Below, piece by piece: positions 16,111 to 64,000 of a DNA stretch of 64,000 nt. Within the stretch, counting starts at the first letter, position 1. Each line of letters begins with the position of its first letter. Position numbers and translations under genes: made by a program. The DNA lies in assembly GCA_020724925.1 (NCBI GenBank), contig DYGC01000001.1, forward strand, positions 5,228 to 69,227, in the 5' to 3' direction. This DNA is from Candidatus Paceibacter sp. GTDB taxonomy: Bacteria > Patescibacteriota > Patescibacteriia > DYGC01. The notes beneath the pieces were generated by a model that was given only the letters and a program-made list of their open reading frames with translations, was not told the origin of the DNA and searched no databases.

Positions 16111-17493
16111 ATGACAAACCCCGTTGATCAAAGCCAATTGCAACAATTATGGCGATCAATTTTAGGAGAAATAGAACTGATAACCACCAAAGCCGAATTT
16201 AATACTTGGTTTCAAGGTTCTCATATTTTAGAATTGAAAGAAAAACAAATAACAATTGGCACTCCCAACGGATTTGCAAAAATTTGGTTACAACAAAAAT
16301 TTACCGATACTATTAAAAAACTATTAAAAAAATACTGGCCCGAAGAAATTGAAAAAATTATTTTTACTTATTCTAAAAATAAAAATGAAAATAATTATAA
16401 CAATTCCAATACAATTAGTTTAAGAAAAACCGAAATATCAAATCATTCCCCCCAACAACAAGCAACAATTCCTGAATTTGGTCTAAATCCACGTTATACT
16501 TTTGAAAATTTTGTAGTAGGGCAGGGTAATGAATTGGCTTTTGCTGCAGCCAAGGCCGTAGCCGACTCTCCTGGTTTAATTTATAATCCTTTGTTTATAT
16601 ACGGGGGCGTGGGTTTGGGAAAAACCCATTTAATGCAAGCTGTTGGTAACCAAATTAAAGCCATGTTACCTCAAAAGAAAATCCTTTATATCAGTACTGA
16701 AAAATTTATCAACGATTTTATATATTCCATCAAACAAAATTCGGTTAATGAATTTAAAAGAAAATATCGCACGGTTGATGTTTTATTAGTTGATGATATT
16801 CAATTTATCTCCGGCAAAGAAAGTACCCAAGAAGAATTTTTTCATACTTTTAATGAACTTTATCAAAATAATAAACAAATTGTTTTAACATCCGATCGTC
16901 CACCAAAAGAATTAGAATCTTTAGAAAATCGTTTATTATCAAGATTTGAATGGGGAATGATTGCCGATATTCGTACTCCTGATCTTGAAACCAGAATCGC
17001 CATTTTACAAAATAAAGCCCAAGATAAAGGAATTATTTTAGACTCTGATTCAGTAGTTTATATTGCAAAAATGGTCCAAAACAATATTAGAGAATTAGAA
17101 GGATTTTTAAATAAATTATTAGCTTATCAACAAATAAATAACACGCCTTTAACTTTAGAAAATATTAGGGTTATTATGGGTAATAATATAAAGGTTAATC
17201 AAGCTAAAAAGAATTTAACTCCTCAAAATTTATTAAATAATGTTTGTAAATATTTTAATATCAGTGCTGATGAAATTTTAAGTAAAACCAGAACTAAACA
17301 TTTGGTTTATCCACGACAAATTCTTTGTTATTTGTTGAAAAATGAAGCTAATTATTCTTATCCGGCGATTGGAAAATTTTTAAATGGTAGAGATCACACT
17401 ACAATATTACATGCTGTCGCCAAATTAGAAAAAGAAATTCATCATAATGAACAATTAAGACAAGATATTGAAACTATAAAAAAATCATCTTAA
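16111..17493 (+). CDS. dnaA: Chromosomal replication initiator protein DnaA
   Basis: AAA+ Walker A GGVGLGKTHL, Walker B LLVDDIQF, sensor and box VII regions, C-terminal DNA-binding domain. Confidence 0.95.
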   Translation: MTNPVDQSQLQQLWRSILGEIELITTKAEFNTWFQGSHILELKEKQITIGTPNGFAKIWLQQKFTDTIKKLLKKYWPEEIEKIIFTYSKNKNENNYNNSNTISLRKTEISNHSPQQQATIPEFGLNPRYTFENFVVGQGNELAFAAAKAVADSPGLIYNPLFIYGGVGLGKTHLMQAVGNQIKAMLPQKKILYISTEKFINDFIYSIKQNSVNEFKRKYRTVDVLLVDDIQFISGKESTQEEFFHTFNELYQNNKQIVLTSDRPPKELESLENRLLSRFEWGMIADIRTPDLETRIAILQNKAQDKGIILDSDSVVYIAKMVQNNIRELEGFLNKLLAYQQINNTPLTLENIRVIMGNNIKVNQAKKNLTPQNLLNNVCKYFNISADEILSKTRTKHLVYPRQILCYLLKNEANYSYPAIGKFLNGRDHTTILHAVAKLEKEIHHNEQLRQDIETIKKSS

Positions 17494-17733: not shown

Positions 17734-18873
17734 ATGAAATTCACTTGTACCCAAGAAAACTTAAATCAAGGTTTTCAAATAGTGCAACACGCAACTAGTA
17801 AAAATTTAAATCTTCCAATATTAAATAATGTTTTAATTACTTTAAAAGATAAAGAAATTAAATTATTAACTACTAATCTTGATATTGGTATTAGTTACAC
17901 AGTTAGAGGAAAGATAGAACAGGAAGGTTCTTTTACAGTTAATGCTAAACTAGTTAGTGATTATGTTAACTTATTACCAAAAGAAAATATTGATATTGAA
18001 TTAGATAATAAAGATCAACTTCATGTTAAATGTTTAGGTCATCAAACTAAAATTAAAGGTTTAAATGCCAGTGATTATCCATTAATACCGGAATTAAACA
18101 AACAAAATAAAGCTACCATTAATGTTGAATTATTTAAAGAGGCTATTAATTCAGTGTTGTTTGCTGTTTCTAAAAATGAAAACAGACCGGAATTAAATGG
18201 TGTATTGTTTAAATTCAATAACAAACAATTGATTTTAGCTTCGACCGATAGTTATCGTTTAGCAGAGAGAAAAATTAATATTAAAAATAATAACTTAGGA
18301 TCACTTAATATTATCGTTCCTTCTAAAACTTTACAGGAATTGGTAAGGGTTTTATCAATATTAAAGAGTAATTTAAATAATGAATCGGAAATAGATATTT
18401 ATATTTCTGAAGGTCAAATTTTATTTACTTTAGATAATTTCGAATTAGTTTCTCGTTTGATAGAAGGTAATTATCCTGATTATGAACAAATTATCCCTGT
18501 TAAATTTAATACTCAAATGATTTCTTCAACCGCCGATTTTCTAAAAAACATAAAAACCGTTAGTTTATTTGTAAAGGAAAATATTAATGATATTACTCTT
18601 CAATTTCAGGTTAATAATAATGATCCTTTACAAAGTGAAGTTCACATCAGAGCTTTTAATGAGCAATTAGGGGAAAGTGATGCGGTTGTAAAATCAAATA
18701 TCACCGGCATTGATAATAATATAGTAGTTAATTATGTTTATTTATTAGAAGGTTTAAATAACATAAAAACTGAGGAAATAAAAGTGGAAATTATTGATAA
18801 TTTATCACCGATTGTTATTAGTTCTGCTAATCAAGATCAGTATTTATATATTGTGATGCCGATTCGTCAATAA
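17734..18873 (+). CDS. dnaN: DNA polymerase III beta sliding clamp
   Basis: 379 aa, three-domain clamp pattern, conserved position after dnaA. Confidence 0.9.
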   Translation: MKFTCTQENLNQGFQIVQHATSKNLNLPILNNVLITLKDKEIKLLTTNLDIGISYTVRGKIEQEGSFTVNAKLVSDYVNLLPKENIDIELDNKDQLHVKCLGHQTKIKGLNASDYPLIPELNKQNKATINVELFKEAINSVLFAVSKNENRPELNGVLFKFNNKQLILASTDSYRLAERKINIKNNNLGSLNIIVPSKTLQELVRVLSILKSNLNNESEIDIYISEGQILFTLDNFELVSRLIEGNYPDYEQIIPVKFNTQMISSTADFLKNIKTVSLFVKENINDITLQFQVNNNDPLQSEVHIRAFNEQLGESDAVVKSNITGIDNNIVVNYVYLLEGLNNIKTEEIKVEIIDNLSPIVISSANQDQYLYIVMPIRQ

Positions 18874-26219: not shown

Positions 26220-26220
26220 T

Positions 26221-29341: not shown

Positions 29342-29349
29342 CTTTATTT

Positions 29350-30351: not shown

Positions 30352-30355
30352 TTTT

Positions 30356-30697: not shown

Positions 30698-30705
30698 TAA
30701 AGATT

Positions 30706-32460: not shown

Positions 32461-32469
32461 AATAATTTT

Positions 32470-33864: not shown

Positions 33865-33873
33865 TTTTTTATT

Positions 33874-34515
33874 ATGGCTACACGTTTAAATGTTAATCCA
33901 ACCAAACAAGAATTGCTGAAGTTAAAATTAAAGTTGAAAACGGCACAACGCGGTCACAAGCTTTTAAAAGAAAAGCGTGATGGTTTGTTAAAACATTTTA
34001 TGGCGGTGATTAAGCAAGCTCGTGATTTGCGTAATAACGTTGAGCAAGATTTGGCTAAGGGTTTTCGTTCATATTTGGTGGCGGCCGCTCAGATGAATCC
34101 GGAGTTTTTGGAAAATGCTTTGTTGGGTTCAGAAAGAAAAGTTAGTTTACGTGCTAATATCAAAAATGTGATGAGTGTTAATATCCCAGAATTTGCTTAT
34201 GAGGAAAGTGGTGATTTTTTATCTTATAGTGCAACGTTTACTTCTGCTTCTTTGGATCAGGCTATTTCCAGCTTCGCTAATAATTTAAAAGATATTGTCA
34301 GTTTGGCACAAATTGAACACTCGGCTAAGTTATTGGCAGCCGAGATTGAAAAAACTCGTCGGCGGGTTAATGCTTTGGAATATGTATCAATTCCCAACAT
34401 TATGGAGACCATTAAATATATTCAAAGCAAACTTAATGAGCAGGAACGTGGTACTTTAATTACTTTAATGAAGGTTAAAGCCAAGTTAGAGGCGGAAGCA
34501 CGGGAGGCGGTTTAA
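33874..34515 (+). CDS. atpD: A/V-type ATPase subunit D (central stalk)
   Basis: MATRLNVNPTKQELLKLKLKLKTAQRGHKLLKEKRDGLL is a canonical D-subunit N-terminus. 213 aa. Confidence 0.85.
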   Translation: MATRLNVNPTKQELLKLKLKLKTAQRGHKLLKEKRDGLLKHFMAVIKQARDLRNNVEQDLAKGFRSYLVAAAQMNPEFLENALLGSERKVSLRANIKNVMSVNIPEFAYEESGDFLSYSATFTSASLDQAISSFANNLKDIVSLAQIEHSAKLLAAEIEKTRRRVNALEYVSIPNIMETIKYIQSKLNEQERGTLITLMKVKAKLEAEAREAV

Positions 34516-45923: not shown

Positions 45924-46778
45924 ATGCCGATTGACAGGGAAGAATTGGAAAAACATTTATTGGCAGATGAAGATTTGGATGAAGAGGCACGTTTAAAACA
46001 ATACGCTGCCGCTTTACCCGATGAACCAATGGTGGTTTCCAATTTGAAATATAAAAAACGACGATGGTTCACCAAGTGGTGGGGCGTTTTAATTATTATT
46101 CTTTTCTTTTTCTTGGTGATTTTTGCTTCCATGTTTTTTTATTATTACAAGGATTTTATTAAGAAAATTGAAGCAGGCACCATCCATTTGGATGTCGCTT
46201 ATATGAATTATGATTTTGCCACGCGCTATGATTTGTTGGCGATTTCCCGTGACGTGATGGCTGATGATCCGTGGTGGGGGCACGAAAATGCTAAGGTGGT
46301 AATTGTCGAGTTCGGTGATTATTCCTGCTCGTTTTGTAAAGATTTCAACAATAAAATCATGCCACAATTGATGGATAAATATTATAACGATATCCTGTTT
46401 ATTTATCGTGATTTCCCGGTAATGTCAGGGGCGGAGGGGGCGTCTGTGCAAATTGCTAACGTTGCCAATTGTATTTACAATCATTTAAATGATCCTCGTG
46501 ATTATTGGCGTGCCGTTCATAATTATTTATTTTTGATGACTGATAATTTGGGATCAGTGCATAAAGATTTAGATGGTTATTATGATGTCGTTAAGGCGGA
46601 AAAGTGTATTAATGATAAGATGTTTTACAATGAGGTTTTGCGTGATTTGAATCAGGGGGAAGAGCTGGGCTTGCGTGGAACGCCCTCGTTTTTTATTAAT
46701 GGGCATCCGGTGGCCGGTAGCATGGAAATTGAAGAATGGTTTTATGTGATTGATAAGTTTTTAGCTGCTAATCAATAA
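45924..46778 (+). CDS. DsbA-family thiol:disulfide oxidoreductase, membrane-anchored
   Basis: N-terminal TM helix. Thioredoxin-fold domain with active site DYSCSFCKDF (CxxC) and C-terminal GTPSFFINGHPVAG (cis-Pro loop region). Confidence 0.65.
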   Translation: MPIDREELEKHLLADEDLDEEARLKQYAAALPDEPMVVSNLKYKKRRWFTKWWGVLIIILFFFLVIFASMFFYYYKDFIKKIEAGTIHLDVAYMNYDFATRYDLLAISRDVMADDPWWGHENAKVVIVEFGDYSCSFCKDFNNKIMPQLMDKYYNDILFIYRDFPVMSGAEGASVQIANVANCIYNHLNDPRDYWRAVHNYLFLMTDNLGSVHKDLDGYYDVVKAEKCINDKMFYNEVLRDLNQGEELGLRGTPSFFINGHPVAGSMEIEEWFYVIDKFLAANQ

Positions 46779-47645: not shown

Positions 47646-48797
47646 ATGGCAAAAGTGATGGAAGGATCGCGCGCGGTGGCGGAGTTGGTGCGTTTGTGTG
47701 AACCGGGCGTGGTTAGTGCTTATCCGATTACCCCGCAAACTCATATTGTGGAATATTTGGCAAAATTTAAGGCTGATGGCTTAGCTACTTATGAATATGT
47801 GCGTGCTGAAAGCGAGTTCACGGCAGCGTCCGTGGTGCTTGGTGCATCAGCCAGTGGCGTTCGTGTGTATAGTGCCACCAGTTCCCAGGGTTTATTATTG
47901 ATGACCGAAGTTTTGTTTAATATTGCCGGCATGCGTTTGCCAGTGGTGATGACTTGTGCCAATCGTTCCGTGAGCGCCCCGATTAATATTTGGAATGATC
48001 AACAGGATGCTTTAACTATTCGTGATTCCGGTTGGTTAATGTTTTATGGTGAGACCGTTCAGGAAGTTTTGGATTTGCATTTGTTGGCTTATAAAGTAGC
48101 AGAGCAATTGAGTTTGCCGGTGATGGTTAATATGGATGGTTTTATTTTAACTCATACTTTTGAACCGGTTGATATTCCTGGTAAGAAAATGATTAAACAA
48201 TATTTGCCAAATTATAAACCGGTTTTGGGGGAAGTTTTAGATCCTAAATTGCCAAAATCATTTGGTTGTTTTGTTGGCCCGAAATATTACTTTGAAATCA
48301 GAAAAGAATTATTTGATAATGTTGTTTCCAGTTTAAAAGTGATTCAGAAGGAAGTACTTAATTTTAAAAAAATATTTAAACGTGATTTGTCTCCGGTGGA
48401 ATATTTTGGTGATAAGCAAGCCAAATTGGTTTTTGTGACAATGGGGTCGGTGGCCGGAACAGTTAAGGATTTTATTGAGAAACACAACAAAAAAAGTAAA
48501 GATAAATTAGGTTTGTTGAAGCTTCGTTGTTTTAGACCTTTCCCGACCGAAGAGATTTTTAAGATTTTAGGTAAAGCTAAGAAGGTGGCAGTCCTTGATA
48601 AATCAGTATCAATGGGGGCGGAGGGGGTTTTGTCCGGTGAAATGAAGCGAGCTTTTTATGGCCGCAAGACTTGTCCGTTAATTAAAAATTATATTCTTGG
48701 TTTGGGCGGACGAGATATTACCAGCGGAATCTTGGGGGACATTTTTGAAGATTTGAAAAAGAGTAGTCAGTCAGAGATTATTTTTAAAGGTAAATAA
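47646..48797 (+). CDS. porA: 2-oxoacid:ferredoxin oxidoreductase alpha subunit
   Basis: MEGSRAVAELVRLCEPGVVSAYPITPQT is a canonical PorA N-terminus. 383 aa. Confidence 0.85.
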   Translation: MAKVMEGSRAVAELVRLCEPGVVSAYPITPQTHIVEYLAKFKADGLATYEYVRAESEFTAASVVLGASASGVRVYSATSSQGLLLMTEVLFNIAGMRLPVVMTCANRSVSAPINIWNDQQDALTIRDSGWLMFYGETVQEVLDLHLLAYKVAEQLSLPVMVNMDGFILTHTFEPVDIPGKKMIKQYLPNYKPVLGEVLDPKLPKSFGCFVGPKYYFEIRKELFDNVVSSLKVIQKEVLNFKKIFKRDLSPVEYFGDKQAKLVFVTMGSVAGTVKDFIEKHNKKSKDKLGLLKLRCFRPFPTEEIFKILGKAKKVAVLDKSVSMGAEGVLSGEMKRAFYGRKTCPLIKNYILGLGGRDITSGILGDIFEDLKKSSQSEIIFKGK

Positions 48798-48803: not shown

Positions 48804-51179
48804 ATGGATTTAAAAAAATTTTGGGATTGCATTAAAAAATCCTATCGCAAATTGAGTTTTTATGAATTGATAACGATGGTGTTTTTTGCGTTTGTGATTT
48901 CCGGCATTATTGTTGGTGATGTTTTGGCGGCAGATAATGTTACGATGAAATATCAGGTGCCAATCGTTGGTGGGCAGAACCCCCAAACTTTGCCGTTGTA
49001 TATCAACGTTGTTTATAAGTGGCTCATGGGGGCGGGCTTGGTTTTGGTGGGTATTATGGTGACAATCGGTGGTTTCATGTATGTTTCTTCCGGTGGTGAT
49101 GCCAAAACCATTGGTACGGGGAAAAAATATATTATCAATGCTTTAATTGGCATGTTGTTGTTATCCAGTGCTTATTTGATTTTAAATACCATCAACCCGG
49201 ATGCGACAGAAATGGAAGATATTGTGGTAAAGCAGGTTGAGGGGGAGGTATTGAAAAATCAAATTGAAGTTCCCTTGGGTTGTGAATGTCATGCTAATAA
49301 AGATTGTGTTAATGCTGCTACCAGTTCTTATTTTTGCGATTGGAGTAGCGGCGGAAGAATGGTATATGATGCTTCCAATAAAAGTTTTATATCACAAAAG
49401 TTAGATCCTTATGCTGAAGCGATTATAGTCGGTACCATTTTAGTGGCGGTTGCTTTTGGCACGGCTGGAACGGGCATTCCCGCTTATTTGGCTTCCAAGG
49501 CTGCGGCTGCCGGAAAAACTGCATTAACTGTGGGAAAAGTGATTGGGAAAGCGGCTTGGGCAACATTCAAATTTACATTCAAGTGGGTGATTTTACCGAC
49601 TAGTTCTTTTGTAGCCGGAGCGGTTATTTCTAATCCGGCCCTTGTTTTTATGGGTTTGATGATGCTTGCCGGGGGTGCAGCCTTTGATTTTAATACGGAA
49701 ATCGTAAAAAAATGTAATCCCCCTAGTGGTGAAGTTAAGGGCGTTTGTTTACCAAATGCTTTTAGGTATGCAAGGTTGAAAACCCATGGGGCGGGGCCAA
49801 CCGATGTTGATTTGGCGGCCGGTACAACGAATAAAAATGGTATGTTTAGTATTTATAATACCGATGGCACTTTGCCGAAGCGTGATTTTTATTTTCGTGA
49901 TCAGGTGACATATTCCATGACTATTAATCAGGAGGGGGGATCATCCTTGTCGGCTGATTCTATTACTCATTTTTATAGAGGTGGTTCCACTGATGGTATT
50001 GTGAACACTGATGGTTGTGCCAGCTATATAAAAAAATATGAAGAAAATTATTGTCCCTGTATTGAATGGGAGGATGGTTTTATGTTTACAAAGTGTAAAA
50101 AACAAGCATCATGTGCAACTATAGAGATGGAGGGTGTAAATATTTATACGGTTGGTGCTGGTGGTACATATTCACAAGGACCAACGTTAAAAAGTACCCA
50201 ACTTTGTTTAACTGGTACGGAAGGGGAAATGTGTAAGACTAATGATGATTGCGGTAAGGGTTTGGAATGTGTCAGTTTAGAAGAGTTGGGAAAGGCTGCA
50301 TATGGTGATGAGTGGCGAAAGTTTGCTATTAAATATAGTACTTTTAGAAAATCAGTAAGAACTTCTCTTACTGATTTAGGGAGTGTCGGTACAATTAAGG
50401 GTGGCTGGGATAGAGACAAAGTTTGTATGTATTCAAAAAATGCGGATAAGGCCAGTTTAACACTTTCTTTGAAAAAAACATTGATGGGGATCGCAGATAT
50501 AGGGGAGTTGGATTGCATGGCTGGGTTAGAAAAATCTGGTGATCATAAAATTCATTGTACTAAGATGGACGTTCCTGTTAATTATTGTGGAATGCTTTCT
50601 TCTGATGTAAAACTTGAAAATTATTTAAAGGCTGGGACAGCGGTAAAAATGTCCGAGGCTTTGTATGACGAAGCCTTAAAATTGTTGGGAAATACAAAAT
50701 TGCAGGTTTATGATAATCTGGATTCATATGTTGGTGCGTCGGCGGGGAATGCGACGGATGTTTTTGATATCAAGTTGGCACGTTGTGATTATTTTTTGCT
50801 TAGCGATAACGATTGTGCTGTTAAGGATGTTTTGGGGCGAGTTGAGCGAATCATTAGGACAACCGACTTGTGTACAAGACAAGCTCTTGATTCATATAAC
50901 CGAAATTATATTAGAAAAAATGCCGATAATTACAAGGACAATTATAGTTTGATGGACCCTGATGAATATTACAAATTTACTTTTGATTATAGTGATTTCA
51001 AGAGTTTTTGTGAAGGTGTTGATGATGAGTGTTCTTGTGATTTGAAGGGTTTGCAAAAAATGTCTTTGATTATACCAGAGGTTGTCAATGGTCCGATTAA
51101 ACATAGCTTTTGTTTAAAAAATACAGATAAATATGGTATTTATAACTATAATTTATTTGTTTTATTGGTTCAGCCGTAA
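48804..51179 (+). CDS. Large cysteine-rich surface protein with an N-terminal VirB2/TrbC-like pilin module (791 aa)
   Basis: Signal/anchor helix, then LYINVVYKWLMGAGLVLVGIMVTIGGFMYVSSGGDAKTIGTGKKYIINALIGMLLLSSAYLIL, the same TM/G-G-x-W/M-x-S-x-G-D/K-rich/TM module as the small paralogs at 62.2-63.9 kb. A second hydrophobic cluster near aa 210-290, then a ~500-aa domain with more than 30 Cys. Lies between porA and porB on the same strand. Confidence 0.55.
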   Translation: MDLKKFWDCIKKSYRKLSFYELITMVFFAFVISGIIVGDVLAADNVTMKYQVPIVGGQNPQTLPLYINVVYKWLMGAGLVLVGIMVTIGGFMYVSSGGDAKTIGTGKKYIINALIGMLLLSSAYLILNTINPDATEMEDIVVKQVEGEVLKNQIEVPLGCECHANKDCVNAATSSYFCDWSSGGRMVYDASNKSFISQKLDPYAEAIIVGTILVAVAFGTAGTGIPAYLASKAAAAGKTALTVGKVIGKAAWATFKFTFKWVILPTSSFVAGAVISNPALVFMGLMMLAGGAAFDFNTEIVKKCNPPSGEVKGVCLPNAFRYARLKTHGAGPTDVDLAAGTTNKNGMFSIYNTDGTLPKRDFYFRDQVTYSMTINQEGGSSLSADSITHFYRGGSTDGIVNTDGCASYIKKYEENYCPCIEWEDGFMFTKCKKQASCATIEMEGVNIYTVGAGGTYSQGPTLKSTQLCLTGTEGEMCKTNDDCGKGLECVSLEELGKAAYGDEWRKFAIKYSTFRKSVRTSLTDLGSVGTIKGGWDRDKVCMYSKNADKASLTLSLKKTLMGIADIGELDCMAGLEKSGDHKIHCTKMDVPVNYCGMLSSDVKLENYLKAGTAVKMSEALYDEALKLLGNTKLQVYDNLDSYVGASAGNATDVFDIKLARCDYFLLSDNDCAVKDVLGRVERIIRTTDLCTRQALDSYNRNYIRKNADNYKDNYSLMDPDEYYKFTFDYSDFKSFCEGVDDECSCDLKGLQKMSLIIPEVVNGPIKHSFCLKNTDKYGIYNYNLFVLLVQP

Positions 51180-51197: not shown

Positions 51198-52073
51198 ATG
51201 ACCAAACAATATCAAGCTCTCTCCCCCGGTCACACCGCGTGCGCCGGCTGCGGCGAACTTCTGGCAATGCGCCACGCTTTGCAAGCGGCCGGACCGGACG
51301 TAATCGTGACCGGAGCCACCGGTTGTAGTGAAGTCACCACTTCCGGTTACCCGGATAGTTCTTTCGGAATGCCGTGGATTCATTCTTTGTTTGAAAATTC
51401 ATCATCGGTTGCATCGGGGATCGCGGCGGCCCTGCGATACCAGAAAAAACAAGACAAAATCAAAGTGATTGCCACCGGCGGTGATGGCGCGACTTTTGAT
51501 ATTGGTTTTGGAGCACTTTCGGCAATGTGGAGTCGTGGTGATGATATTTTGTATATTTGTTATGACAATGAGGCTTATATGAATACCGGTGTGCAAGCTA
51601 GTGGCGCCACTTTGCCGGGAACATCTACGACCACCAGTCCGAGTGGGGCGGTGGAGCAGGGAAATATGATGCCGAAAAAAGATATGCCGGCGATTGCCAT
51701 GGCACACGGTTGTGTTTATGTTGCCACCGCCTCTCCCGGCTACCCGATTGATATTCAAAACAAAGTAAAAAAAGCTTTGACCATGAAGGGACCGAAATAT
51801 ATTCAGTTATTATCGCCGTGTGTGCCAGGCTGGGGTTTTTCTACTGATCAAGCAGTGAAATTAGGAAAACTCGCTCATCAAACCGGTTTGTATCCAATTT
51901 TTGAAGCTGTTAATGGACAAATCACCAGTGCGATGAAAGTCCCCAAACCCACGCCCTCGGTAAGCGCTTATTTGGAATTGCAAAAACGATTTAAACATGT
52001 TTTGAAAAACCCACAATTATTGGCGACGATTCAAGCAATCGCCGATGCCAATATTGTGAAATATGGGTTGTAG
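51198..52073 (+). CDS. porB: 2-oxoacid:ferredoxin oxidoreductase beta subunit (TPP-binding)
   Basis: CAGCGE ... GATGC ... ATGGDGATFDIGFGALS (TPP/Mg GDG motif). 291 aa. Confidence 0.85.
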   Translation: MTKQYQALSPGHTACAGCGELLAMRHALQAAGPDVIVTGATGCSEVTTSGYPDSSFGMPWIHSLFENSSSVASGIAAALRYQKKQDKIKVIATGGDGATFDIGFGALSAMWSRGDDILYICYDNEAYMNTGVQASGATLPGTSTTTSPSGAVEQGNMMPKKDMPAIAMAHGCVYVATASPGYPIDIQNKVKKALTMKGPKYIQLLSPCVPGWGFSTDQAVKLGKLAHQTGLYPIFEAVNGQITSAMKVPKPTPSVSAYLELQKRFKHVLKNPQLLATIQAIADANIVKYGL

Positions 52074-52451: not shown

Positions 52452-53924
52452 TTACGGTAATCTCTTCACGAAATCCACAAGCTCCGCTACCGCTTTGTCC
52501 ATTTTTCCACTTTTATTTTCAATCACCAAGTCATAATACTGACTGAAACTTTTTTCTTCACTGGCGTTGGCTAAACGAATTTTAATATCTTCTTCGGTGT
52601 TACTACCACGTCCACGTAAGCGTTTTTCCAAATCTTTGAGCGGGGCATCAATGAAAATCAACCAGGCTTCTGGGTATTGATCACGGATTTGCAAAGCTCC
52701 CTGAATATCGATATTTAAAACAATATTTTTATTTTTGATAGTGTTTTCCAAAACATCACGCGCGGTGCCATAATAATTTTCATGGACCAACGCCCATTCA
52801 ATCACTTTATTTTCTCTAATCAGTTGTTCAAATTCTTCTTTGCTGACATTGAGAATTTTTTTATCTTCAGGAATTTCTCGGGGGGCACGGGTGGTGTAGG
52901 TAGCGCCAGTTTGTAATTGTAACTCTCCGTGTTTTTTTAAAACATCAATGATGATAGTACTTTTCCCAGCACCGGAAGCACCGGAAACAATTAAAATATT
53001 TTTGTTGGGATTGACTTCATTTAAAAACATTTTCAATTCAAATGGTAATTTGCTGTAGAATTTTTGTGGTTCTCCGTTTAAATCAGTAAATTCCAGTTCT
53101 TGTGCATGTAAAAAAATTCTTCCTAAATTAATACTGCGATATTTTTTCTGTTTGTAGAGCGGGTCACCGACAATCGCGTGGCCGAAGGCGTGAAAATGAG
53201 CACGAATTTGGTGAGTGCGTCCGCTTTTTAGATTGATTTTTAATAAGGAGAAGTGTTTGTAAGGTTTGATTAATTCGTATTCGGTAATTGATTCCTTGCC
53301 ACTTTCGGCATTGCTTGGTTTGGCAACCATGCGTTTTTTGTCAGAGCTTCGTTCCAGTTTGAAATTAATAACCCCGCTTTCTTTGTTTGGTTTACCAAAA
53401 GCTAGAGCAATATAATGTTTTTTGATGCTACGATTTTGAAATTGTTGCTTGAGATGTTCAAACATTTTTTTTGTCCGAGCGATTACTAATAAACCGGAGA
53501 CCATTTTGTCCAGACGATGTACGATGCCAGGGCGTAGCGGATCATCACCGATTCCTTCTAAATTTGGATATTTTTCCAATAATTGTTGAATGGCACTGCT
53601 TTGTTGAAGGTTTTTGCTACCATGGGTGGCTAATCCAGCTGGTTTATCAATAACAATAAAATTACGATCGACTTTAAGAATTCTAATCTGCGGAGCATTG
53701 CTTTTGTCGTCTTCTTGTTGGTTTTTTGTATCAAAAACACAAGCAATCTCATCGTTGTTGTCCAGCCAGTGGTGTGGGGTGTTGATGACTTGTCCATTGA
53801 TACTAATTTGGCCATTTTTAATCCAATTTTGGATTTGATTTCGTGAATATTTTTTGAGCTTACTGACCAGAAATTTATCTAAACGCTCATCGCCACTTTC
53901 TTCGAAAATAAAAGTTTTTTTCAT
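52452..53924 (-). CDS. Fusion protein: RluA/RluD-family 23S rRNA pseudouridine synthase (S4 + catalytic domain) fused to guanylate kinase
   Basis: N-terminal S4 domain (ERLDKFLVSKL...) and RluA catalytic motif HRLDKMVSGLLVIART. C-terminal ~190 aa has the Gmk P-loop IVSGASGAGKSTI, TTRAPREIPEDKKILNVSKEEF and EWALVHENYYGT motifs. Single uninterrupted 490-aa ORF. Confidence 0.7.
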   Translation of the reverse strand: MKKTFIFEESGDERLDKFLVSKLKKYSRNQIQNWIKNGQISINGQVINTPHHWLDNNDEIACVFDTKNQQEDDKSNAPQIRILKVDRNFIVIDKPAGLATHGSKNLQQSSAIQQLLEKYPNLEGIGDDPLRPGIVHRLDKMVSGLLVIARTKKMFEHLKQQFQNRSIKKHYIALAFGKPNKESGVINFKLERSSDKKRMVAKPSNAESGKESITEYELIKPYKHFSLLKINLKSGRTHQIRAHFHAFGHAIVGDPLYKQKKYRSINLGRIFLHAQELEFTDLNGEPQKFYSKLPFELKMFLNEVNPNKNILIVSGASGAGKSTIIIDVLKKHGELQLQTGATYTTRAPREIPEDKKILNVSKEEFEQLIRENKVIEWALVHENYYGTARDVLENTIKNKNIVLNIDIQGALQIRDQYPEAWLIFIDAPLKDLEKRLRGRGSNTEEDIKIRLANASEEKSFSQYYDLVIENKSGKMDKAVAELVDFVKRLP

Positions 53925-57825: not shown

Positions 57826-58698
57826 ATGTCTAAAAAAATTCGTAAAGTGATTATTCCGGTGGCTGGTTGGGGAACAAGATTTTTGCCGGCTACTAAAGCA
57901 CAACCTAAAGAAATGTTGCCGATTGTTGATACGCCGATTATTCAGCATGTCGTAGAGCAGGCTGTGGAATCTGGTATTGAGGAAATTATTTTGGTGACCG
58001 GTGCTTCTAAGCGTGCCGTGGAAGATCATTTTGATTATAATTATGCTTTGGAACAGCATTTGGAAAAGCAAAATAAGCCGGAATTATTAGCGGAAACGCG
58101 TCGCATCGCTGAGATGGCGACTTTTGTTTATGTTCGCCAGAAAGGTCCGTATGGTAATGGTACACCGGTTTTGACCGCCCGTGATTTAATTGGCGATGAG
58201 CCGTTCGCGGTGATGTGGGGCGATGAATTTTTTCATTCTGATTATAAACCGCATTTGCGTCAGCTGATTGATGTTTATGAAAAATATGAACAACCCGTTT
58301 TAACCGCCTATGAAGTGACTTCACGTGATGTGGAAAAATATGGTATAATAGATGCGAGCCTGATTGAAGACGGAATTTTTCAAGTTAAAAGAATTGTGGA
58401 GAAGCCTAAAAAAGAAGAAGCTCCTTCCAATTTAGCGTCTTTGGGGGGTTACATTTTAACCCCGGATATTTTTGACATTTTAGCTAATTTGCCTTTGGGC
58501 AAGGGAGGGGAGTTGTGGTTGACTGACGCGATTGCCAAGCTCTTGGAAAAACGACCGATTTACGCTTGTTTGGTGAATGGTACTTATTATGATACCGGTT
58601 CTAAATTGGGGTATTTACAGGCAAACGTTGATACTGCTTTGCGCCGCGATGATTTGCGAGATGATTTTTTGGAATATTTAAAAACAAAGATTAAATAA
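57826..58698 (+). CDS. galU: UTP--glucose-1-phosphate uridylyltransferase
   Basis: KVIIPVAGWGTRFLPATKAQPKEMLPIVDTPIIQHVVEQAVESGIEEIILVTG is a near-textbook GalU N-terminus. 290 aa. Confidence 0.85.
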   Translation: MSKKIRKVIIPVAGWGTRFLPATKAQPKEMLPIVDTPIIQHVVEQAVESGIEEIILVTGASKRAVEDHFDYNYALEQHLEKQNKPELLAETRRIAEMATFVYVRQKGPYGNGTPVLTARDLIGDEPFAVMWGDEFFHSDYKPHLRQLIDVYEKYEQPVLTAYEVTSRDVEKYGIIDASLIEDGIFQVKRIVEKPKKEEAPSNLASLGGYILTPDIFDILANLPLGKGGELWLTDAIAKLLEKRPIYACLVNGTYYDTGSKLGYLQANVDTALRRDDLRDDFLEYLKTKIK

Positions 58699-58708
58699 AA
58701 AATATTTT

Positions 58709-60115
58709 ATGAATGTGCCAGCCTTAAAAAAAATAACACTTAAATTTTTAGTGTTTTCTTTGGTTTTTGTTTTACCATTAAGCGGCTTTGGCTGTAAGTT
58801 GATGTCATCTGAGGTACAGGAGAATGTAAAATCAACCACTTTGGAAATCTGGGGTGTTTATATGAACAGTGCTCATATTAAACCGATTGTTGATGCTTAT
58901 CGAGTTAGCCATCCTTATGTACGAGTCAATTATACTAATTTTAGACCGGAAGAATATGAAACCCAGTTGTTAAATGCCATGGCTGAGGATCGTGGGCCGG
59001 ACATTTTTTTAGTGCACAACACTAAAGTTTTAGAATATCGCAACAAATTATTGCCATTGCCAGCGAGCGTGAAAGTGGCAACGCTCGTGGAGGAGGGGAC
59101 AATTAAAAAAGAGACCAAGGTGGTGATGCAAACCATTCCTGGTTTAACAGTCGGACAATTAAAAAAATCTTTTGTCGATGTGGTAGCGAGTGATGTAGTT
59201 TTTGTTAATGCTGAGACGCGCCAGGAGGAAATTTTTGGCTTACCCTTGAGTATGGATACTTTAGTTTTATATTATAATGCTGATTTATTGAACCGTGCGA
59301 ATATCCCGGAGCCACCACAAACGTGGATGGAGCTTCAAGAAATGATTCCCAAATTAACCAAGGTTGATGAAAATGATGGAATTGTCCAAGCGGGGATCGC
59401 TTTGGGTTTAAGTGATAACATTGATAATTATTTTGATATAGTGTCGGCTCTGATGTTGCAGAATGGAACGGTTTTTGCAAATGAGTATAATCAGTTAGTA
59501 ATGGATAAGATCCCTGGTGTTTTGCAGGGAAAAATTGAAGTTTCTCCGGCCCTGAGCGCCTTAGATTTTTATAGTTCTTTCGCGAAGCCATATAAGGTTA
59601 CTTATACTTGGGATAAATACATGAAGACGGCGGTGCAGTCGTTCGCGGCTGGCAATTTAGCGATGTTTGTTGGTTATCAATTTCATAATGAGACTATTAA
59701 AAGTTTGTCTCCAAAGTTGAATTATTTAATCGCACCATTACCACAGGTCAATCTGGAATATCCAATTAATTATGCTAATTATTGGGTGATGGGGGTTTCT
59801 AAAAAAACAAAATCAGCAGATGTCGCTTGGGATTTTGTGCAATATGCTACCCAAGCTGATCAGGTTAGTAAATACTTGACCGCCAGTGGGCGCGTTACTG
59901 CTTTGAAGGCTTTGGTGAAAAATCAACAAAGTGATGCTTTGGGAGTTTTTGCCAATCAGGTTTTAACTGCTAAAAGTTGGTTTCACGGTTCTGATTTTGA
60001 AGCGGCTAAAGCGGTCTTCAAAACCATGATTGATGATTCCGCCACTGATAATTATAAAAGTATGGGTGATTTGATTTCTAATACTAATACCAAGTTGAAT
60101 AGTATTTATAGATAA
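58709..60115 (+). CDS. Extracellular solute-binding lipoprotein (ABC transporter substrate-binding protein, family 1 / sugar-type)
   Basis: Lipobox LSGFGC. About 440-aa periplasmic-binding-protein-like domain; 468 aa. No cognate permease or ATPase adjacent. Confidence 0.55.
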   Translation: MNVPALKKITLKFLVFSLVFVLPLSGFGCKLMSSEVQENVKSTTLEIWGVYMNSAHIKPIVDAYRVSHPYVRVNYTNFRPEEYETQLLNAMAEDRGPDIFLVHNTKVLEYRNKLLPLPASVKVATLVEEGTIKKETKVVMQTIPGLTVGQLKKSFVDVVASDVVFVNAETRQEEIFGLPLSMDTLVLYYNADLLNRANIPEPPQTWMELQEMIPKLTKVDENDGIVQAGIALGLSDNIDNYFDIVSALMLQNGTVFANEYNQLVMDKIPGVLQGKIEVSPALSALDFYSSFAKPYKVTYTWDKYMKTAVQSFAAGNLAMFVGYQFHNETIKSLSPKLNYLIAPLPQVNLEYPINYANYWVMGVSKKTKSADVAWDFVQYATQADQVSKYLTASGRVTALKALVKNQQSDALGVFANQVLTAKSWFHGSDFEAAKAVFKTMIDDSATDNYKSMGDLISNTNTKLNSIYR

Positions 60116-60126
60116 AAATAAAATAT

Positions 60127-62109
60127 ATGAGGATTTTCAGGCATTTTTCTTTTTTCCTTTTGGTGTTTGCCATGTTTACCTTAAGTGGTAATTTTGTGTT
60201 TTCGGCTGATGATTGTGTTAAAGAGGAGGAGTTGGTTTGTTACACAGTTTTAAGGGTTGATGGTATGAACGTTTTATTTAATGCCACTCCTTCTGGTATT
60301 CAGTTATCGACAAGTGAGGCTCTTAGCTATGCGATGATGAGTGATCAAGCTCGTTCCACTTCTTTGGTGTGCCTCATTCCTAAAAGTAAAATCCCAAAAA
60401 ACATTACTGATGATGATTCTTATGCTCGGTGCATGGCAGAAGCATCGTCTGCTAGTTATGGGTCATTGAAATATTATAAATGTTGGTTGGGAAACAATTT
60501 TAATACTATTACTAGCCCAAATTTTTACACTTGCAATTGGTACACAATTGAAAAGCAGTTGGCTGCGGAAGCACAAGCTAAGCGGCTTGCAGAAGGTAAG
60601 GAATATGGTTCTGGAAACATCACTTGTGGTGGTCGTACTTTTCAGTGTACACCTAGTGGTTGGTTCGCGAATGTTTCCCCCGCCTGTTTTTGTTGCGGTC
60701 AGTGCGAGCCCCGGGATTTATTAACAGTTGGAAATACCTTTTTAAAATGGTTGTTTGGTATTGTCGGGGCGATTGGTTTGGCAATGTTTGTGTGGGGTGG
60801 TTTCAATTGGATTACTTCTGCCGGTGATCAGGGTAAGATCACGACCGGTAAAAAGGCGATTACTAATACCATGGTTGGTTTACTGATTATGTTTTCCGCT
60901 GGAGTGGTTGTTATGACTATTCAAAAAACTCTTGGTTTGGATGTGCAGATATCAGTGGTGGGGCAGCTTGATAGTAATACCGGAGCGGATGCTACCGGTA
61001 GTACCGATGCTAGTCAAGAAGTTCATGGTAATTTGCAATTGGGTGATAAGTGTACAGTTCAAGAGAAAACTTCTAATAGTGATTGTGCTAAGGATTTATA
61101 TTGTTATGCGGTTAAGGACAATCCGGAAACTAAAGGTATTTGTTTGCCAAAAAATCCGAAGGGGTCATCAAAGCCCGGTTATCGTTGTTGGATTTTAAAT
61201 GATGGCAATACTTGTTCTTTGGGGGAATGTTTGGTACTTGTGGAGCCTTCGGTAGATCCTGGTACTACTAATAAAGCCATTCCTGGGACGGAAGGTGTTT
61301 GTACCAGTGAAGAAGACGTAAATAAAATCATTGGTAAGGCTTGTAAGGCCGATACTGAGTGTGGTTCTGGTTTTAAGTGTACTAATGGGAAATGTATAAT
61401 CGTTACTAGCAGTAATATGAATCGTCGCGAACCGTGCTACGTGTTACCGGGTAGTAATACTAATGATTGTATCTCTGATTTTAAGTGCTTTCCGGATTTA
61501 AATAATGCGACTGCTAAAAGAACTGTTGGCACAAAAGGAACCTGTGCTTATAACCAAAGCTTGGTTGAAGGTAAAATATGTATTGGTAATGTTGAATGTA
61601 AAACTGGTTTGCTTTGTAAGCGGATTCCTAAGGCTTCTACCGAGGTGTGTGTTAGTAAAACGAGAAAATTTGATGTTCCTGTCGGTGGATCTTGCTTTAA
61701 ATTTACCATGGAGGGATCCAGTGATCCTGATGATCAATGGAAAAACGTGATTGATAATTGCGTCTTAGGTTTAGATTGTTATTATGGAAAAGATAGCGAC
61801 AAGTCTGGCATTTGTGCACCACCAAATCCTGTGAATTCTGTTAGCAGTATTGGTGGAGAGTGCTATATTTTGCCAGGTAGTTCATCAATGTGTGCCAACA
61901 ATTCCCAGTGCGTTGCTTATATTTCCAAGGCTTATAAAACAACTCCTGGATCAAAGGGTATTTGTATTCCTAAGTATAATTCAGTGGACGAAGGTCAGAC
62001 TTGTGTTTATTTGCCTGGAACTAAAACTGTTTGTAAGAGTGGTTTGACTTGTGATATCGGAATGTGGACCAAGGAATTTGGTCGACAAGGAGTTTGTGTG
62101 CGCAAATAG
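60127..62109 (+). CDS. Large cysteine-rich surface protein with VirB2/TrbC-like pilin module and about 7 tandem Cys-knot-like modules (660 aa)
   Basis: Signal peptide. Cys-rich N-region, then pilin-like module LKWLFGIVGAIGLAMFVWGGFNWITSAGDQGKITTGKKAITNTMVGLLIMFSAGVVVM. About 7 repeats of C-x(5-12)-C-x(3-6)-C-x(8-20)-G(I/V)C(L/I/V)PK (e.g. GDKCTVQEKTSNSDCAKDLYCYAV...KGICLPK; GGECYILPGSSSMCANNSQCVAY...KGICIPK). Confidence 0.55.
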   Translation: MRIFRHFSFFLLVFAMFTLSGNFVFSADDCVKEEELVCYTVLRVDGMNVLFNATPSGIQLSTSEALSYAMMSDQARSTSLVCLIPKSKIPKNITDDDSYARCMAEASSASYGSLKYYKCWLGNNFNTITSPNFYTCNWYTIEKQLAAEAQAKRLAEGKEYGSGNITCGGRTFQCTPSGWFANVSPACFCCGQCEPRDLLTVGNTFLKWLFGIVGAIGLAMFVWGGFNWITSAGDQGKITTGKKAITNTMVGLLIMFSAGVVVMTIQKTLGLDVQISVVGQLDSNTGADATGSTDASQEVHGNLQLGDKCTVQEKTSNSDCAKDLYCYAVKDNPETKGICLPKNPKGSSKPGYRCWILNDGNTCSLGECLVLVEPSVDPGTTNKAIPGTEGVCTSEEDVNKIIGKACKADTECGSGFKCTNGKCIIVTSSNMNRREPCYVLPGSNTNDCISDFKCFPDLNNATAKRTVGTKGTCAYNQSLVEGKICIGNVECKTGLLCKRIPKASTEVCVSKTRKFDVPVGGSCFKFTMEGSSDPDDQWKNVIDNCVLGLDCYYGKDSDKSGICAPPNPVNSVSSIGGECYILPGSSSMCANNSQCVAYISKAYKTTPGSKGICIPKYNSVDEGQTCVYLPGTKTVCKSGLTCDIGMWTKEFGRQGVCVRK

Positions 62110-62182
62110 GTTTGTCTAAAAAGTATTTTTACGCTATAATATAGGTATTATAAACGCCTAATTAAAAAATAAGAAAAAAATT

Positions 62183-62587
62183 ATGCGATCAATGAAAAGT
62201 TTCGTTTTGAGCTTGGTCATGGGCTTGGCGGTTTTTATGCCTTTGGCTGGTGCTAGTGCTGTTACTTTGTTTCCAGATGCTTCTGGTACCGGGGAAGACA
62301 TGGCTACTACCATGGGTTTAAGCGCTGACAAGTCTTTGGCTGAGATTATCGCCAGTATTATTAACATTGTCTTAAGTGTCTTGGGTGTGGTCTTGGTTGT
62401 TTTGATTATTTATGCTGGTATTAAATGGATGACTTCTTCTGATGAAAAGGGTGTCGGTGATGCCAAGAAAATTTTAATCAACGCGATTGTCGGTTTGGTA
62501 ATTATCGTGGCTGCTTGGGCGATTACCTCATTCGTGGTTAGTAGTATTATGACTTCTGTGGGCGATACCGGTGGATTACCTTCCTAG
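62183..62587 (+). CDS. VirB2/TrbC-like pilin-fold protein, paralog 1 (134 aa)
   Basis: Sec-type signal peptide (PLAGASA/VT). Mature part: TM helix IVLSVLGVVLVVLIIYAGIKWMTSSDEKGVGDAKKILINAIVGLVIIVAAWAITSFVV (two TM helices joined by a W-M-T-S-x-D/K-rich turn). Own terminator downstream. Confidence 0.55.
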   Translation: MRSMKSFVLSLVMGLAVFMPLAGASAVTLFPDASGTGEDMATTMGLSADKSLAEIIASIINIVLSVLGVVLVVLIIYAGIKWMTSSDEKGVGDAKKILINAIVGLVIIVAAWAITSFVVSSIMTSVGDTGGLPS

Positions 62588-62595
62588 TTTTTTAT

Positions 62596-62622
62596 AAAAA
62601 GGAGAGTTATTCTCCTTTTTTA
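62596..62622 (+). terminator. Rho-independent terminator after pilin-like paralog 1
   Basis: AAAAGGAGAG-TTAT-TCTCCTTTTTT: perfect 8-bp stem plus T-run. Confidence 0.6.
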
Positions 62623-62658
62623 TAAGGCATCAGTTAATTTGTTGGTGTTTTATAAAAA

Positions 62659-63015
62659 GTGAGAATAATAAAAATTAATATGTTAAATATAAAAAACAAA
62701 TTTCTTGCGTTGGTGACGTCTTTTGCTTTGTGGTTGTTTCCTTTTTGGGTGTTCGCGGAAACTTTATATAATCCAATGAGTGGGACTAAGGATGTGCCAA
62801 CTTTAATTGGTAAGATTTTGAGTATAGTAATTGGTATAATTGGAGCAATTGCTTTGGTAATGTTTATTTTTGGTGGTTTTTTATGGATGACTTCTGCAGG
62901 GGATACGGGATCAATAAAAAAGGGGAAAGATACCATGGTTTATGCAGTTTTGGGATTGGTTGTGGTTTTTTCTGCACGGGCAATTTTGTCTTTTGTTTTT
63001 GAAAATTTAAAATAA
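62659..63015 (+). CDS. VirB2/TrbC-like pilin-fold protein, paralog 2 (118 aa)
   Basis: Signal peptide (WVFA/ET), then IGAIALVMFIFGGFLWMTSAGDTGSIKKGKDTMVYAVLGLVVVFSARAIL. Confidence 0.55.
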   Translation: MRIIKINMLNIKNKFLALVTSFALWLFPFWVFAETLYNPMSGTKDVPTLIGKILSIVIGIIGAIALVMFIFGGFLWMTSAGDTGSIKKGKDTMVYAVLGLVVVFSARAILSFVFENLK

Positions 63016-63025
63016 GTTTATTGAT

Positions 63026-63454
63026 ATGAATAAAAAAATGATTTATTTGGGGGCGTTACTATTTTTTTTGATAGTTCCTTTTTCTTTATTGGCCGCCGAT
63101 TATGGTTTGACCGAGAGTGCTAATGCTGCAAATCTCCCAGAAAATGTTAATTTAATGGGAATGATTGCAAAAGTGGTTGGAACTGCGCTGTCTTTGGTTG
63201 GTGTGATTTTCTTGATTTTATTTATTTATGGAGGAATGCTCTGGATGACGGCCGGTGGTAAGGCTGATAATACAAAAAAAGCTAAGGATTTAATGGTTAA
63301 TGCGGTAATTGGTCTAGTTTTGATTTTTAGTGCGTATTTTGTGACCAGATTTGTGGTTAGTGAATTAACTTCTGCTTCCCAGGTTGTTCCCGGGGGAAGT
63401 ACAACACCAACGCCTGGAACGAGTTTTAGTAATGGAGTTTTTGATAAAGTTTAG
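63026..63454 (+). CDS. VirB2/TrbC-like pilin-fold protein, paralog 3 (142 aa)
   Basis: Signal peptide (SLLA/AD), then LVGVIFLILFIYGGMLWMTAGGKADNTKKAKDLMVNAVIGLVLIFSAYFV, plus a T/P/G-rich C-terminal tail. Confidence 0.55.
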   Translation: MNKKMIYLGALLFFLIVPFSLLAADYGLTESANAANLPENVNLMGMIAKVVGTALSLVGVIFLILFIYGGMLWMTAGGKADNTKKAKDLMVNAVIGLVLIFSAYFVTRFVVSELTSASQVVPGGSTTPTPGTSFSNGVFDKV

Positions 63455-63481
63455 TTTTCAGTTTTTAATAAAATTATTGCT

Positions 63482-63868
63482 ATGGGGTTTCTTTTTTCTA
63501 ATCAATTGATAGTTTTGTTTCTAGGATTTTTAGCGGGGATATTTTCTCCTTTTTTAACATTTGCCAGCGATTATGGGACAAGTGAATTAGCCAGTCAATT
63601 GGGATATAAGACTTATGCGGTTGACCGTGATTTGATTTTAGCGATTGTTGGCAAAGTTATTGCCGGTGTTTTAGGGTTTTTGGGAGTAGTTTTTTTGGTT
63701 GGTATTGTTTATTATGGTTTTAGATGGATGACAGCCGGTGGGAAGTCAGATGTAGTGAAGGTCGCGAAAGATGGGATTACAAATTTGGTAATTGGTTTAA
63801 TTTTGGTTTTATCGGCTTATGCTATTACTAGTTTTATTTTAAGTATTTTAACTAATGTTAATAAATAG
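63482..63868 (+). CDS. VirB2/TrbC-like pilin-fold protein, paralog 4 (128 aa)
   Basis: Signal peptide (TFA/SD), then LGVVFLVGIVYYGFRWMTAGGKSDVVKVAKDGITNLVIGLILVLSAYAI. Confidence 0.55.
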   Translation: MGFLFSNQLIVLFLGFLAGIFSPFLTFASDYGTSELASQLGYKTYAVDRDLILAIVGKVIAGVLGFLGVVFLVGIVYYGFRWMTAGGKSDVVKVAKDGITNLVIGLILVLSAYAITSFILSILTNVNK

Positions 63869-63872
63869 AATT

Positions 63873-64000
63873 ATGTTGAAAAAATTTTTAGTAAAGATAT
63901 TTATTATAGCAATCTTATGTGTGCCTACATTAGCATATGCCGCAAATTTGAATGATGCTACTAGTGTTTTGGATTCTGGGGCCAAGGAGATGGGCTATCA
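63873..64000 (+). CDS. Secreted protein, N-terminal fragment (continues past window end)
   Basis: ATG at 63873 encodes MLKKFLVKIFIIAILCVPTLAYA/ANLNDATSVLDSGAKEMGY, a Sec signal peptide with AYA cleavage site. Truncated by the window edge. Confidence 0.35.
   Translation, partial: MLKKFLVKIFIIAILCVPTLAYAANLNDATSVLDSGAKEMGY

Follow-up and report, generated by a model that had tools for sequence, protein, structure and literature searches.

What is the function of a large cysteine-rich protein encoded at the head of an array of small pilin genes in a Patescibacterium? The question is raised by the gene at 60127..62109 of a 64,000 nucleotide stretch of the genome of a Candidatus Paceibacter sp. 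(assembly GCA_020724925.1, contig DYGC01000001.1, positions 5,228 to 69,227), which is here called the window. An initial annotation of the sequence had described the 660 aa product as a secreted fusion of a pilin-like module with about seven tandem cysteine-knot-like modules and as a candidate pilus tip or adhesin subunit. Read from its sequence, this product, referred to in the following as the lead pilin, is an ectodomain-bearing pilin of the VirB2/TrbC type, i.e., of the kind associated with type IV secretion systems (T4SS). The exact 660 aa protein is also encoded on two further assemblies (L010 and L011). What is new here is a lead pilin which bears ectodomains and exchanges one of them as a cassette, while the existence of arrays of VirB2-like pilins in Patescibacteria was already known.

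Assignment to the T4SS pilins is carried by the hairpin in the first half of the protein. Residues 200-262 match the Pfam family PF18895 (T4SS_pilin) with an E value of 6e-10 and 39.5 bits, the cut-off being 26.6 bits, and the NCBIfam model for a pilin-like conjugal transfer protein matches the lead pilin and the small pilins downstream of it, and not the 791 aa paralog encoded elsewhere in the window. In pairwise BLASTP the hairpin matched a 118 aa paralog at E 3e-13 and the 791 aa paralog at E 9e-11. Taken together these matches mean that the module common to the lead pilin and its paralogs, which the initial annotation had noticed, reflects real homology of the T4SS (VirB2) kind, and the hairpin in addition weakly matches the fold of the Aeropyrum pernix conjugative pilin 8dfu. 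The description of the protein as a pilin is therefore correct as to family, and the kind is VirB2/TrbC and not that of the type IV pilus. The N-terminus (MRIFRHFSFFLLVF...) is an ordinary Sec-type signal without the prepilin-peptidase site of type IV pilins (G-F/M-T-L-x-E, cleaved after the G), which in these pilins precedes a single hydrophobic helix at the N-terminus, and the 660 aa protein has no match to a type IV pilin family in Pfam. It likewise has no Pfam or NCBIfam match to the VirB5/TraC family.

Hydropathy peaks at residues 7-25, 204-226, and 245-263 lead to a predicted layout in which a signal peptide is followed by an N-terminal domain on the outside, a first transmembrane (TM) segment, a basic loop on the inside, a second TM segment, and a C-terminal domain on the outside. 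In VirB2 both termini lie outside and the loop inside. The loop which joins the two hydrophobic helices of the lead pilin (NWITSAGDQGKITTGKKAITN), between which the motif VWGGFNWITSAGDQGKITTGKKAITN is located, carries four Lys and one Asp, and is consistent with this topology. It is in size that the protein departs from the VirB2/TrbC pilins, the precursors of which have approximately 100-150 aa and consist mostly of the hairpin; in the lead pilin approximately 170 residues precede the hairpin and approximately 395 follow it. The N-terminal ectodomain of approximately 170 aa had been left out of the earlier description altogether; its last part is a neck with six cysteines (residues 161-199; GSGNITCGGRTFQCTPSGWFANVSPACFCCGQCEPRDLL) directly ahead of the hairpin.

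Ectodomains of the lead pilin

Comparison of near-identical strains provides what is, in our reading of these sequences, the strongest argument for a recognition role, and one that the initial annotation missed: the replacement of the N-terminal cassette. The window and locus L008 are 99.7% identical over 58163-60132 and 99.3% identical over 60673-63992, with differences in the flanks that are almost all synonymous, and between these flanks a cassette of 540 nt in the window and 405 nt in L008 has no detectable nucleotide similarity. A second, independent pair of loci, L021 and L004, has flanks that are 98.2% and 99.5% identical, which enclose 475 and 498 nt of unrelated sequence spanning codons ~17-175. 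Among the proteins, identity before and after the neck is 30% and 100% between P0004 and P0005, and 61% and 44% between P0003 and P0006. Since the N-terminal domain disagrees in this way with the rest of the protein, N-domain types have evidently moved from one lineage to another, the breakpoints lying in the conserved start of the gene and in the neck. The GC content of the domain (0.39) is the same as that of its flanks, no second copy or silent cassette was found in the window or in the fetched loci, and a dedicated search of 5.8 billion proteins with residues 27-169 returned no homolog. The action of a diversity-generating retroelement was considered and rejected, because the alleles lack any nucleotide similarity instead of differing at adenine sites; the scanned ORFs (open reading frames) of the window included no recognizable reverse transcriptase. 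It should also be mentioned that an alternative N-domain type, present in P0001, P0002, and P0005 (L008 1965-2384; L001 10001-10417), is built of short cysteine repeats of the form C-x4-C-x5-C-x5-C and weakly matches the profile of the C-terminal modules.

This pattern resembles that of cassette-swapping receptor-binding proteins such as phage tail-fibre tips and polymorphic adhesins, in which one domain is replaced wholesale between conserved flanks and one domain type is common to distant lineages. The likeness is not one of sequence relationship, and there are differences: the variable domain of the lead pilin is N-terminal, in one strain pair out of two the swap extends to the signal peptide, and there are no silent donor copies in the window.

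Cysteine makes up 6.7% of the lead pilin (44 residues), with 12 before the hairpin, none within it, and 32 after it, and the four small pilins of the window are free of it. All 44 fall into predicted outer segments, which speaks against a cytoplasmic placement of the cysteine-rich region, and the even counts on either side of a cysteine-free hairpin (12 and 32) are as expected of extracytoplasmic domains, in agreement with the earlier prediction. The DsbA homolog previously noticed in the vicinity was likewise recovered, as a membrane-anchored DsbA-like thioredoxin with a CSFC motif, the product of which is a candidate oxidase for the 44 cysteines.

Residues 305-660 form eight modules of four cysteines each, one more than the seven or so first counted, with a spacing of C-x5-21-C-x4-5-C-x4-23-C and the consensus G-x-x-C ... 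C-x-x-G-L-x-C ... G-x-G-x-C. The repeat had been described as ending in GIC[LI]PK; this ending is present in modules M1 and M7, and the other modules do not have it. With four cysteines and hence two disulfides at most, the modules cannot be cystine knots, as had been proposed. An inhibitor cystine knot or knottin, which has six cysteines and three disulfides, is ruled out by the count of exactly four in every module, and an EGF-like domain by the same count together with the lack of any EGF-type Pfam or NCBIfam match at E up to 1. Module M3, the minimal form of the unit, weakly matches the TIGR04201 Cys-rich repeat (E 0.0036, below the cut-off). Structure prediction of the C-terminal repeats had been suggested as a check, and the C-terminal 363 residues modelled alone indeed gave a confident chain of small beta modules (mean pLDDT 82). 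The full-length AlphaFold2 model was poor for the N-terminal domain and hairpin (mean pLDDT 57), the hairpin helices being placed at residues 195-230 and 235-269 with low pLDDT.

Comparison of the modelled modules with the PDB gave no significant match. In sequence profile searches the module consensus came near to mini-IGFBP-5 and Draxin, below usual significance, and Foldseek and profile searches shared a theme of colipase, MIT1, and Dickkopf, again always below usual significance. The description that fits the modules best is that of putative beta-hairpin units with two disulfides, of the DDH/colipase/mini-IGFBP kind. The DDH fold is a beta-hairpin held together by a pair of disulfides with I-III and II-IV connectivity (PMC11891777). 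Like the DDH, colipase, Dickkopf, MIT1, and mini-IGFBP domains, the unit found here has four cysteines and is predicted to be a small beta-hairpin; these families, however, are secreted proteins of eukaryotes, while here the unit is repeated six to eight times on a membrane pilin. Variation in the number of modules among relatives, which had been named as something to look for, does occur, with orthologs carrying from 6 to 8.

The gene string and the pilin array

Searching for the full architecture identified six clusters in 5.8 billion proteins, and only six representatives fell below E 1e-30 among 1.84 billion. The relatives are encoded by one GTDB genome and four metagenome loci, one strain being from an activated-sludge assembly, and are annotated in public records simply as 'pilin'. 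All of the orthologs whose context was checked are positional, with the gene of a solute-binding protein (SBP) ahead, then the lead pilin, 6-7 small pilins, and yebC-ruvC where the contig reaches that far, and the same gene order is present in relatives whose lead protein is 31-98% identical. Conservation is unevenly distributed along the protein. The hairpin (68-98% identity among orthologs) and the neck (64-74%) are the most conserved segments, the N-terminal domain is at ~10%, and the C-terminal modules are at 24-87%, or at 0% for M7 and M8 where these are absent; the linker is 100% identical in the strain-level ortholog P0001 and 23-62% identical in the others (P0002-P0006). The conservation of neck and hairpin makes it less likely that the hairpin is just a generic membrane anchor, a possibility which had been raised as one that would overturn the pilin reading.

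On contig L010, from the same genome, the lead pilin is followed by seven small PF18895 pilins and then by yebC and ruvC, which places three further small pilins (g5-g7) beyond base 64000. The family of six genes first proposed thus becomes one of nine PF18895 genes if the 791 aa paralog is counted, with the lead pilin and seven small pilins in the array itself, and the notion that the gene heads a conserved pilin array is confirmed in relatives. The small paralogs are 25-49% identical to one another and have a positional ortholog in nearly every one of four compared genomes, the exception being g7, which is missing in L006 (six small pilins). One-to-one orthology combined with low identity between paralogs indicates an old array of non-redundant members. 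The sixth small pilin is 144 aa long on L010 (12781-13215) and 155 aa on L011 (11953-12420), two assemblies otherwise identical where compared; this is probably a difference in the start codon called or a strain-level 5' indel. Past the stop codon of the lead pilin and 43 nt before g1 a sigma-70-like element (TTGTCT, 17 nt, TATAAT; 62112-62140) is present, so that the small pilins may have a promoter of their own, although promoter and terminator scans of the window were overall not above background.

Tandem arrays of VirB2-like pilins are widespread in Patescibacteria, and that of S. epibionticum is essential (PMC12102498, PMC10633639, PMC12857230). They consist of 2-11 tandem genes, with a mean paralog identity of ~25% and a maximum of 54% (Quinonero-Coronel et al. 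2025, PMC12102498), a description into which the eight consecutive PF18895 genes of L010 fall. Our array shares with the published ones (Wang et al. 2023, PMC10633639; PMC12102498) the PF18895 domain, divergent tandem pilins, and a chromosomal, origin-proximal location. In contrast to these arrays of small pilins it includes a 660 aa member with two cysteine-rich ectodomains, a six-cysteine neck, and a swappable cassette, and it is not adjacent to virB4, having instead a conserved pair of genes for a GalU-like nucleotidyltransferase and the SBP ahead of it. No description of ectodomain-fused pilins was found in the literature searched.

The GalU-SBP pair extends to distant relatives. An SBP ortholog (36-78% identity) lies directly upstream of the lead pilin in L004, L006, L007, and L016-L020. 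The cysteine motif of the neck, C-x-CC-G-x-C followed by [L/P]-x-D directly before the first TM segment, is present in 30 of the 162 retrieved proteins, which range from 145 to 693 aa. For five distant members with this motif the SBP adjoins the lead pilin in every case, with SBPs 36-53% identical to that of the window. The order GalU - SBP - Cys-neck pilin was found in all three loci with contigs reaching far enough upstream; in the other two, on short contigs, the pilin comes directly after the SBP, in one of them with a partial GalU ahead. Small pilins follow downstream wherever the contig reaches that far. The lead pilins of these five loci have 145, 166, 248, 646, or 653 aa. A conserved string of genes with such varied lead pilins indicates that the lead position is occupied by a distinct and conserved pilin subtype, onto which ectodomains have been grafted in each lineage at either of the outward ends. 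The 653 aa protein (P0133; L017 2473-4434) has an unrelated C-terminal ectodomain of four repeats with C-T-x-D/K-F-Q/E, rich in Trp and Cys. As no matching sugar-type ABC permease is adjacent to the SBP, the latter may work together with the pilin set.

Among the large ORFs of the 64 kb window that were scanned with Pfam, no VirB4, VirB6, or VirD4 was detected, nor were these found in the 10 kb flanking the gene on each side in L001 and L004, two relatives with long contigs; the window ORFs without a Pfam match are unlike VirB4 or VirB6. The scanned large ORFs are housekeeping genes, including dnaA, dnaN, a penicillin-binding protein, a V/A-ATPase operon, polA, por genes, and an ABC exporter (MacB/HlyD-type). 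An origin region was recognized at 15602-22000, with rnpA, dnaA (16111..17493), and dnaN (17734..18873), a change of sign in the GC skew, and a GC content of 25-27% over 16-20 kb. The distance of 44 kb between dnaA and the pilin array agrees with published observations that T4SS genes of Patescibacteria tend to be located close to the origin.

Possible function of the lead pilin

We consider the chances about even that the lead pilin belongs to the pilin set as a subunit or partner which is displayed on the surface and determines specificity, probably in contact with host or neighbouring cells. It would be exported by the Sec pathway and lose its signal peptide; the hairpin would then span the membrane, its Lys-rich loop facing the cytoplasm, while the N-terminal ectodomain with the neck and the eight modules, according to the predicted topology, would be outside, where the DsbA-like enzyme could oxidise them. 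By means of neck and hairpin the protein might join the seven cysteine-free small pilins and a T4SS encoded elsewhere, either as an infrequent subunit of the assembly, at its end or near its base, or as a docked membrane partner. The ectodomains would thereby be presented on the surface of the cell or filament, with the swapping N-terminal domain as a binding head that determines specificity and the C-terminal modules as a stable spacer or a second binding surface. A location at the tip would be plausible, because a subunit of this bulk cannot be accommodated in a VirB2 shaft lattice. This is similar in concept to the minor pilins of the tip in type II secretion systems and type IV pili (GspK and PilY1-associated pilins), where a pilin anchor carries a bulky domain that fits the end of the filament only and is encoded together with the pilins, but the analogy should not be taken further, as there is no homology and those proteins have the type IV pilin fold and a class III signal peptide, the latter absent here. 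The canonical VirB2, TrbC, and TraA pilins (PF04956; F, T, and RP4 pili), the termini of which both point outward in the membrane and on the surface of the pilus, share with the lead pilin a signal peptide and a pair of hydrophobic helices with a short basic loop; unlike it they measure ~70-130 aa in the mature form, are in many cases cyclised or trimmed, have their genes within a T4SS operon, and are without ectodomains.

Several points weigh against a role as subunit of a T4SS pilus. In the solved VirB2-type pili (F- and T-pilus structures) the subunits are tightly packed, and 170 plus 395 extra residues exclude the lead pilin as a shaft subunit at normal stoichiometry. The canonical tip adhesin, VirB5, is a separate and unrelated protein. 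To our knowledge filament formation has so far been demonstrated for no VirB2-like protein of a Patescibacterium, the models of the hairpin and N-terminal domain are of low confidence, and, as there are no T4SS genes nearby, the link to a T4SS rests on homology of the pilin domain.

The main rival is a membrane protein that remains alongside the machinery: a permanently anchored adhesin or receptor in which the hairpin is a two-pass anchor, perhaps docked beside a T4SS, and the ectodomains cross the cell wall or S-layer. We regard this as possible, if clearly less probable than a displayed subunit or partner of the pilin set. Many PF18895 proteins have long, unrelated N- or C-terminal extensions, as would be expected of a reusable anchor (among the 148 best-scoring representatives 76 have at least 250 aa and 23 at least 400 aa), and both the bulk of the ectodomains, which is too great for a tight VirB2 lattice, and the lack of T4SS genes nearby would find a ready explanation. 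Against it, conservation is highest in hairpin and neck (64-98%), which is not what a generic TM anchor would look like, and the gene has kept its place as the first of a pilin array even in distant lineages; furthermore VirB2 is itself a membrane protein before assembly, so that residence in the membrane and later assembly are compatible. That the gene encodes instead the precursor of a released factor, with the modules or the N-terminal domain cleaved off as a soluble or T4SS-delivered effector, e.g., an inhibitor- or toxin-like binder of a protein of the host envelope, appears unlikely. The nearest matches of the modules are admittedly secreted binders and toxins (mini-IGFBP, Draxin/Dickkopf, colipase/MIT1, inhibitor cystine knot toxins) and VirB2/TrbC pilins are proteolytically processed at their ends, but neither a protease site nor a protease gene was identified, and the hypervariable part is the N-terminal domain and not the toxin-like modules.

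Somewhat less likely still is a purely structural component of the envelope, such as a cell-wall or S-layer spacer without a role in recognition. Tandem rigid modules braced by disulfides would suit a spacer well; this proposal, however, leaves unexplained the clean replacement of the N-terminal domain between strains with 98-99.7% identical flanks, and the sharing of N-domain types by distant species. An artefact of assembly or gene calling that joined a pilin gene to neighbouring ORFs can practically be dismissed, given the identical 660 aa product on independent JGI and Logan assemblies, an architecture kept in about ten orthologs from different samples, and an uninterrupted frame in which all 32 C-terminal cysteines are conserved in register.

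On its sequence features, then, the lead pilin is a good candidate for the part of these ultrasmall Patescibacteria that recognizes host cells, and three features make it a strong one: the near-invariant hairpin, the swap of the N-terminal domain between near-identical strains, and the lead position across distant lineages. The T4SS, together with its pilin array, is essential to epibiotic growth in the one genetically tractable Patescibacterium, and reviews call the role of the Patescibacterial T4SS completely unknown (PMC10633639, PMC11665869). If the displayed-subunit reading is true, a pilin with large oxidised ectodomains would provide such a system with a definite candidate for contact with the host and for specificity, and its modules would represent a bacterial, tandemly repeated use of a two-disulfide mini-fold otherwise known from secreted proteins and toxins of animals. 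More speculatively, the Cys-neck lead pilin, always accompanied by GalU and SBP, might be a modular display scaffold whose recombining ectodomains set the host range, i.e., the receptor-binding subunit of the Patescibacterial T4SS, comparable to the tips of phage tail fibres; we put this forward as a tentative suggestion, with the balance of probability against it.

Feature coordinates and further contents of the window

Table 1. The lead pilin gene, its segments, and associated genes in the window (coordinates in window positions; residues are those of the 660 aa product).
Feature	Position	Strand	Evidence or remark
Membrane-anchored DsbA-like thioredoxin, CSFC motif	45924..46778	+	Thioredoxin_4 E 2e-23, DSBA E 3e-8
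791 aa paralog	48804..51179	+	PF18895 23.8 bits, just below cut-off
GalU-like nucleotidyltransferase	57826..58698	+	Conserved member of gene string
Orphan solute-binding-protein (SBP) gene, ends 11 nt before lead pilin	58709..60115	+	SBP_bac_1 and SBP_bac_8 matches
Lead pilin, whole gene, 660 aa	60127..62109	+	Intact ORF; PF18895 match
Putative signal peptide, residues 1-26 (MRIFRH, hydrophobic core, putative cleavage between VFS and AD)	60127..60204	+	Hydropathy maximum, residues 7-25
Swappable cassette, codons 3-182 (signal peptide and N-terminal ectodomain)	60133..60672	+	Window compared with L008
N-terminal ectodomain, residues 27-160, 6 Cys (~170 aa ahead of hairpin including neck)	within 60127..62109	+	
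Six-Cys neck, residues 161-199 (GSGN-TCG-R-F-C..GGWF..VS..C-x-CCG-x-C-x-P-x-DLL)	60607..60723	+	Ortholog conservation
T4SS_pilin hairpin, residues 200-265 (TM1, basic loop, TM2)	60724..60921	+	PF18895 and paralog alignment
Ser/Thr/Gly/Asp low-complexity linker, residues 266-304	60922..61038	+	pLDDT <50
Module M1, residues 305-342	61039..61152	+	Four Cys
Module M2, residues 350-395	61174..61311	+	Four Cys
Module M3, residues 402-426, minimal form CKADTECGSGFKCTNGKC	61330..61404	+	Four Cys
Module M4, residues 433-476	61423..61554	+	Four Cys
Module M5, residues 481-511	61567..61659	+	Four Cys
Module M6, residues 519-566	61681..61824	+	Four Cys
Module M7, residues 575-616	61849..61974	+	Four Cys; absent in P0004, P0005, P0006, P0015, P0017
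Module M8, residues 622-660	61990..62106	+	pLDDT ~90; absent in P0004, P0005, P0006, P0015, P0017
Small pilin g1, most conserved paralog (70-98% among orthologs)	62183..62587	+	PF18895 E 4e-13
Small pilin g2	62659..63015	+	PF18895 E 1e-13; also TrbC/VirB2 PF04956 E 6e-9
Small pilin g3	63026..63454	+	PF18895
Small pilin g4	63482..63868	+	PF18895 25.2 bits, just under cut-off

The 791 aa paralog has a signal or TM segment, a hairpin at residues 65-130, two or three more TM segments, and a cysteine-rich C-terminal region. Its gene is located between porA (47646..48797) and porB (51198..52073) of a pyruvate:ferredoxin oxidoreductase operon, a position common to L001 and L004. An Rfam scan of the window yielded two tRNAs only. 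A V/A-type ATPase operon at 25887-34515 is complete, with subunits I, c/K, C/AC39, F, A, B, and D, and represents an unusual choice of energy coupling that is of interest for placing the lineage. Between it and the gene for trigger factor, in a stretch of low GC content, a gene on the minus strand (24287-25717) encodes a 476 aa protein rich in Lys, Glu, and Asn which has no cysteine, TM segment, or Pfam match. Also on the minus strand, the gene at 52452-53924 encodes a 490 aa protein in which an S4/RluD-type pseudouridine synthase is joined to a guanylate kinase, and this fusion is kept in all of the related loci.

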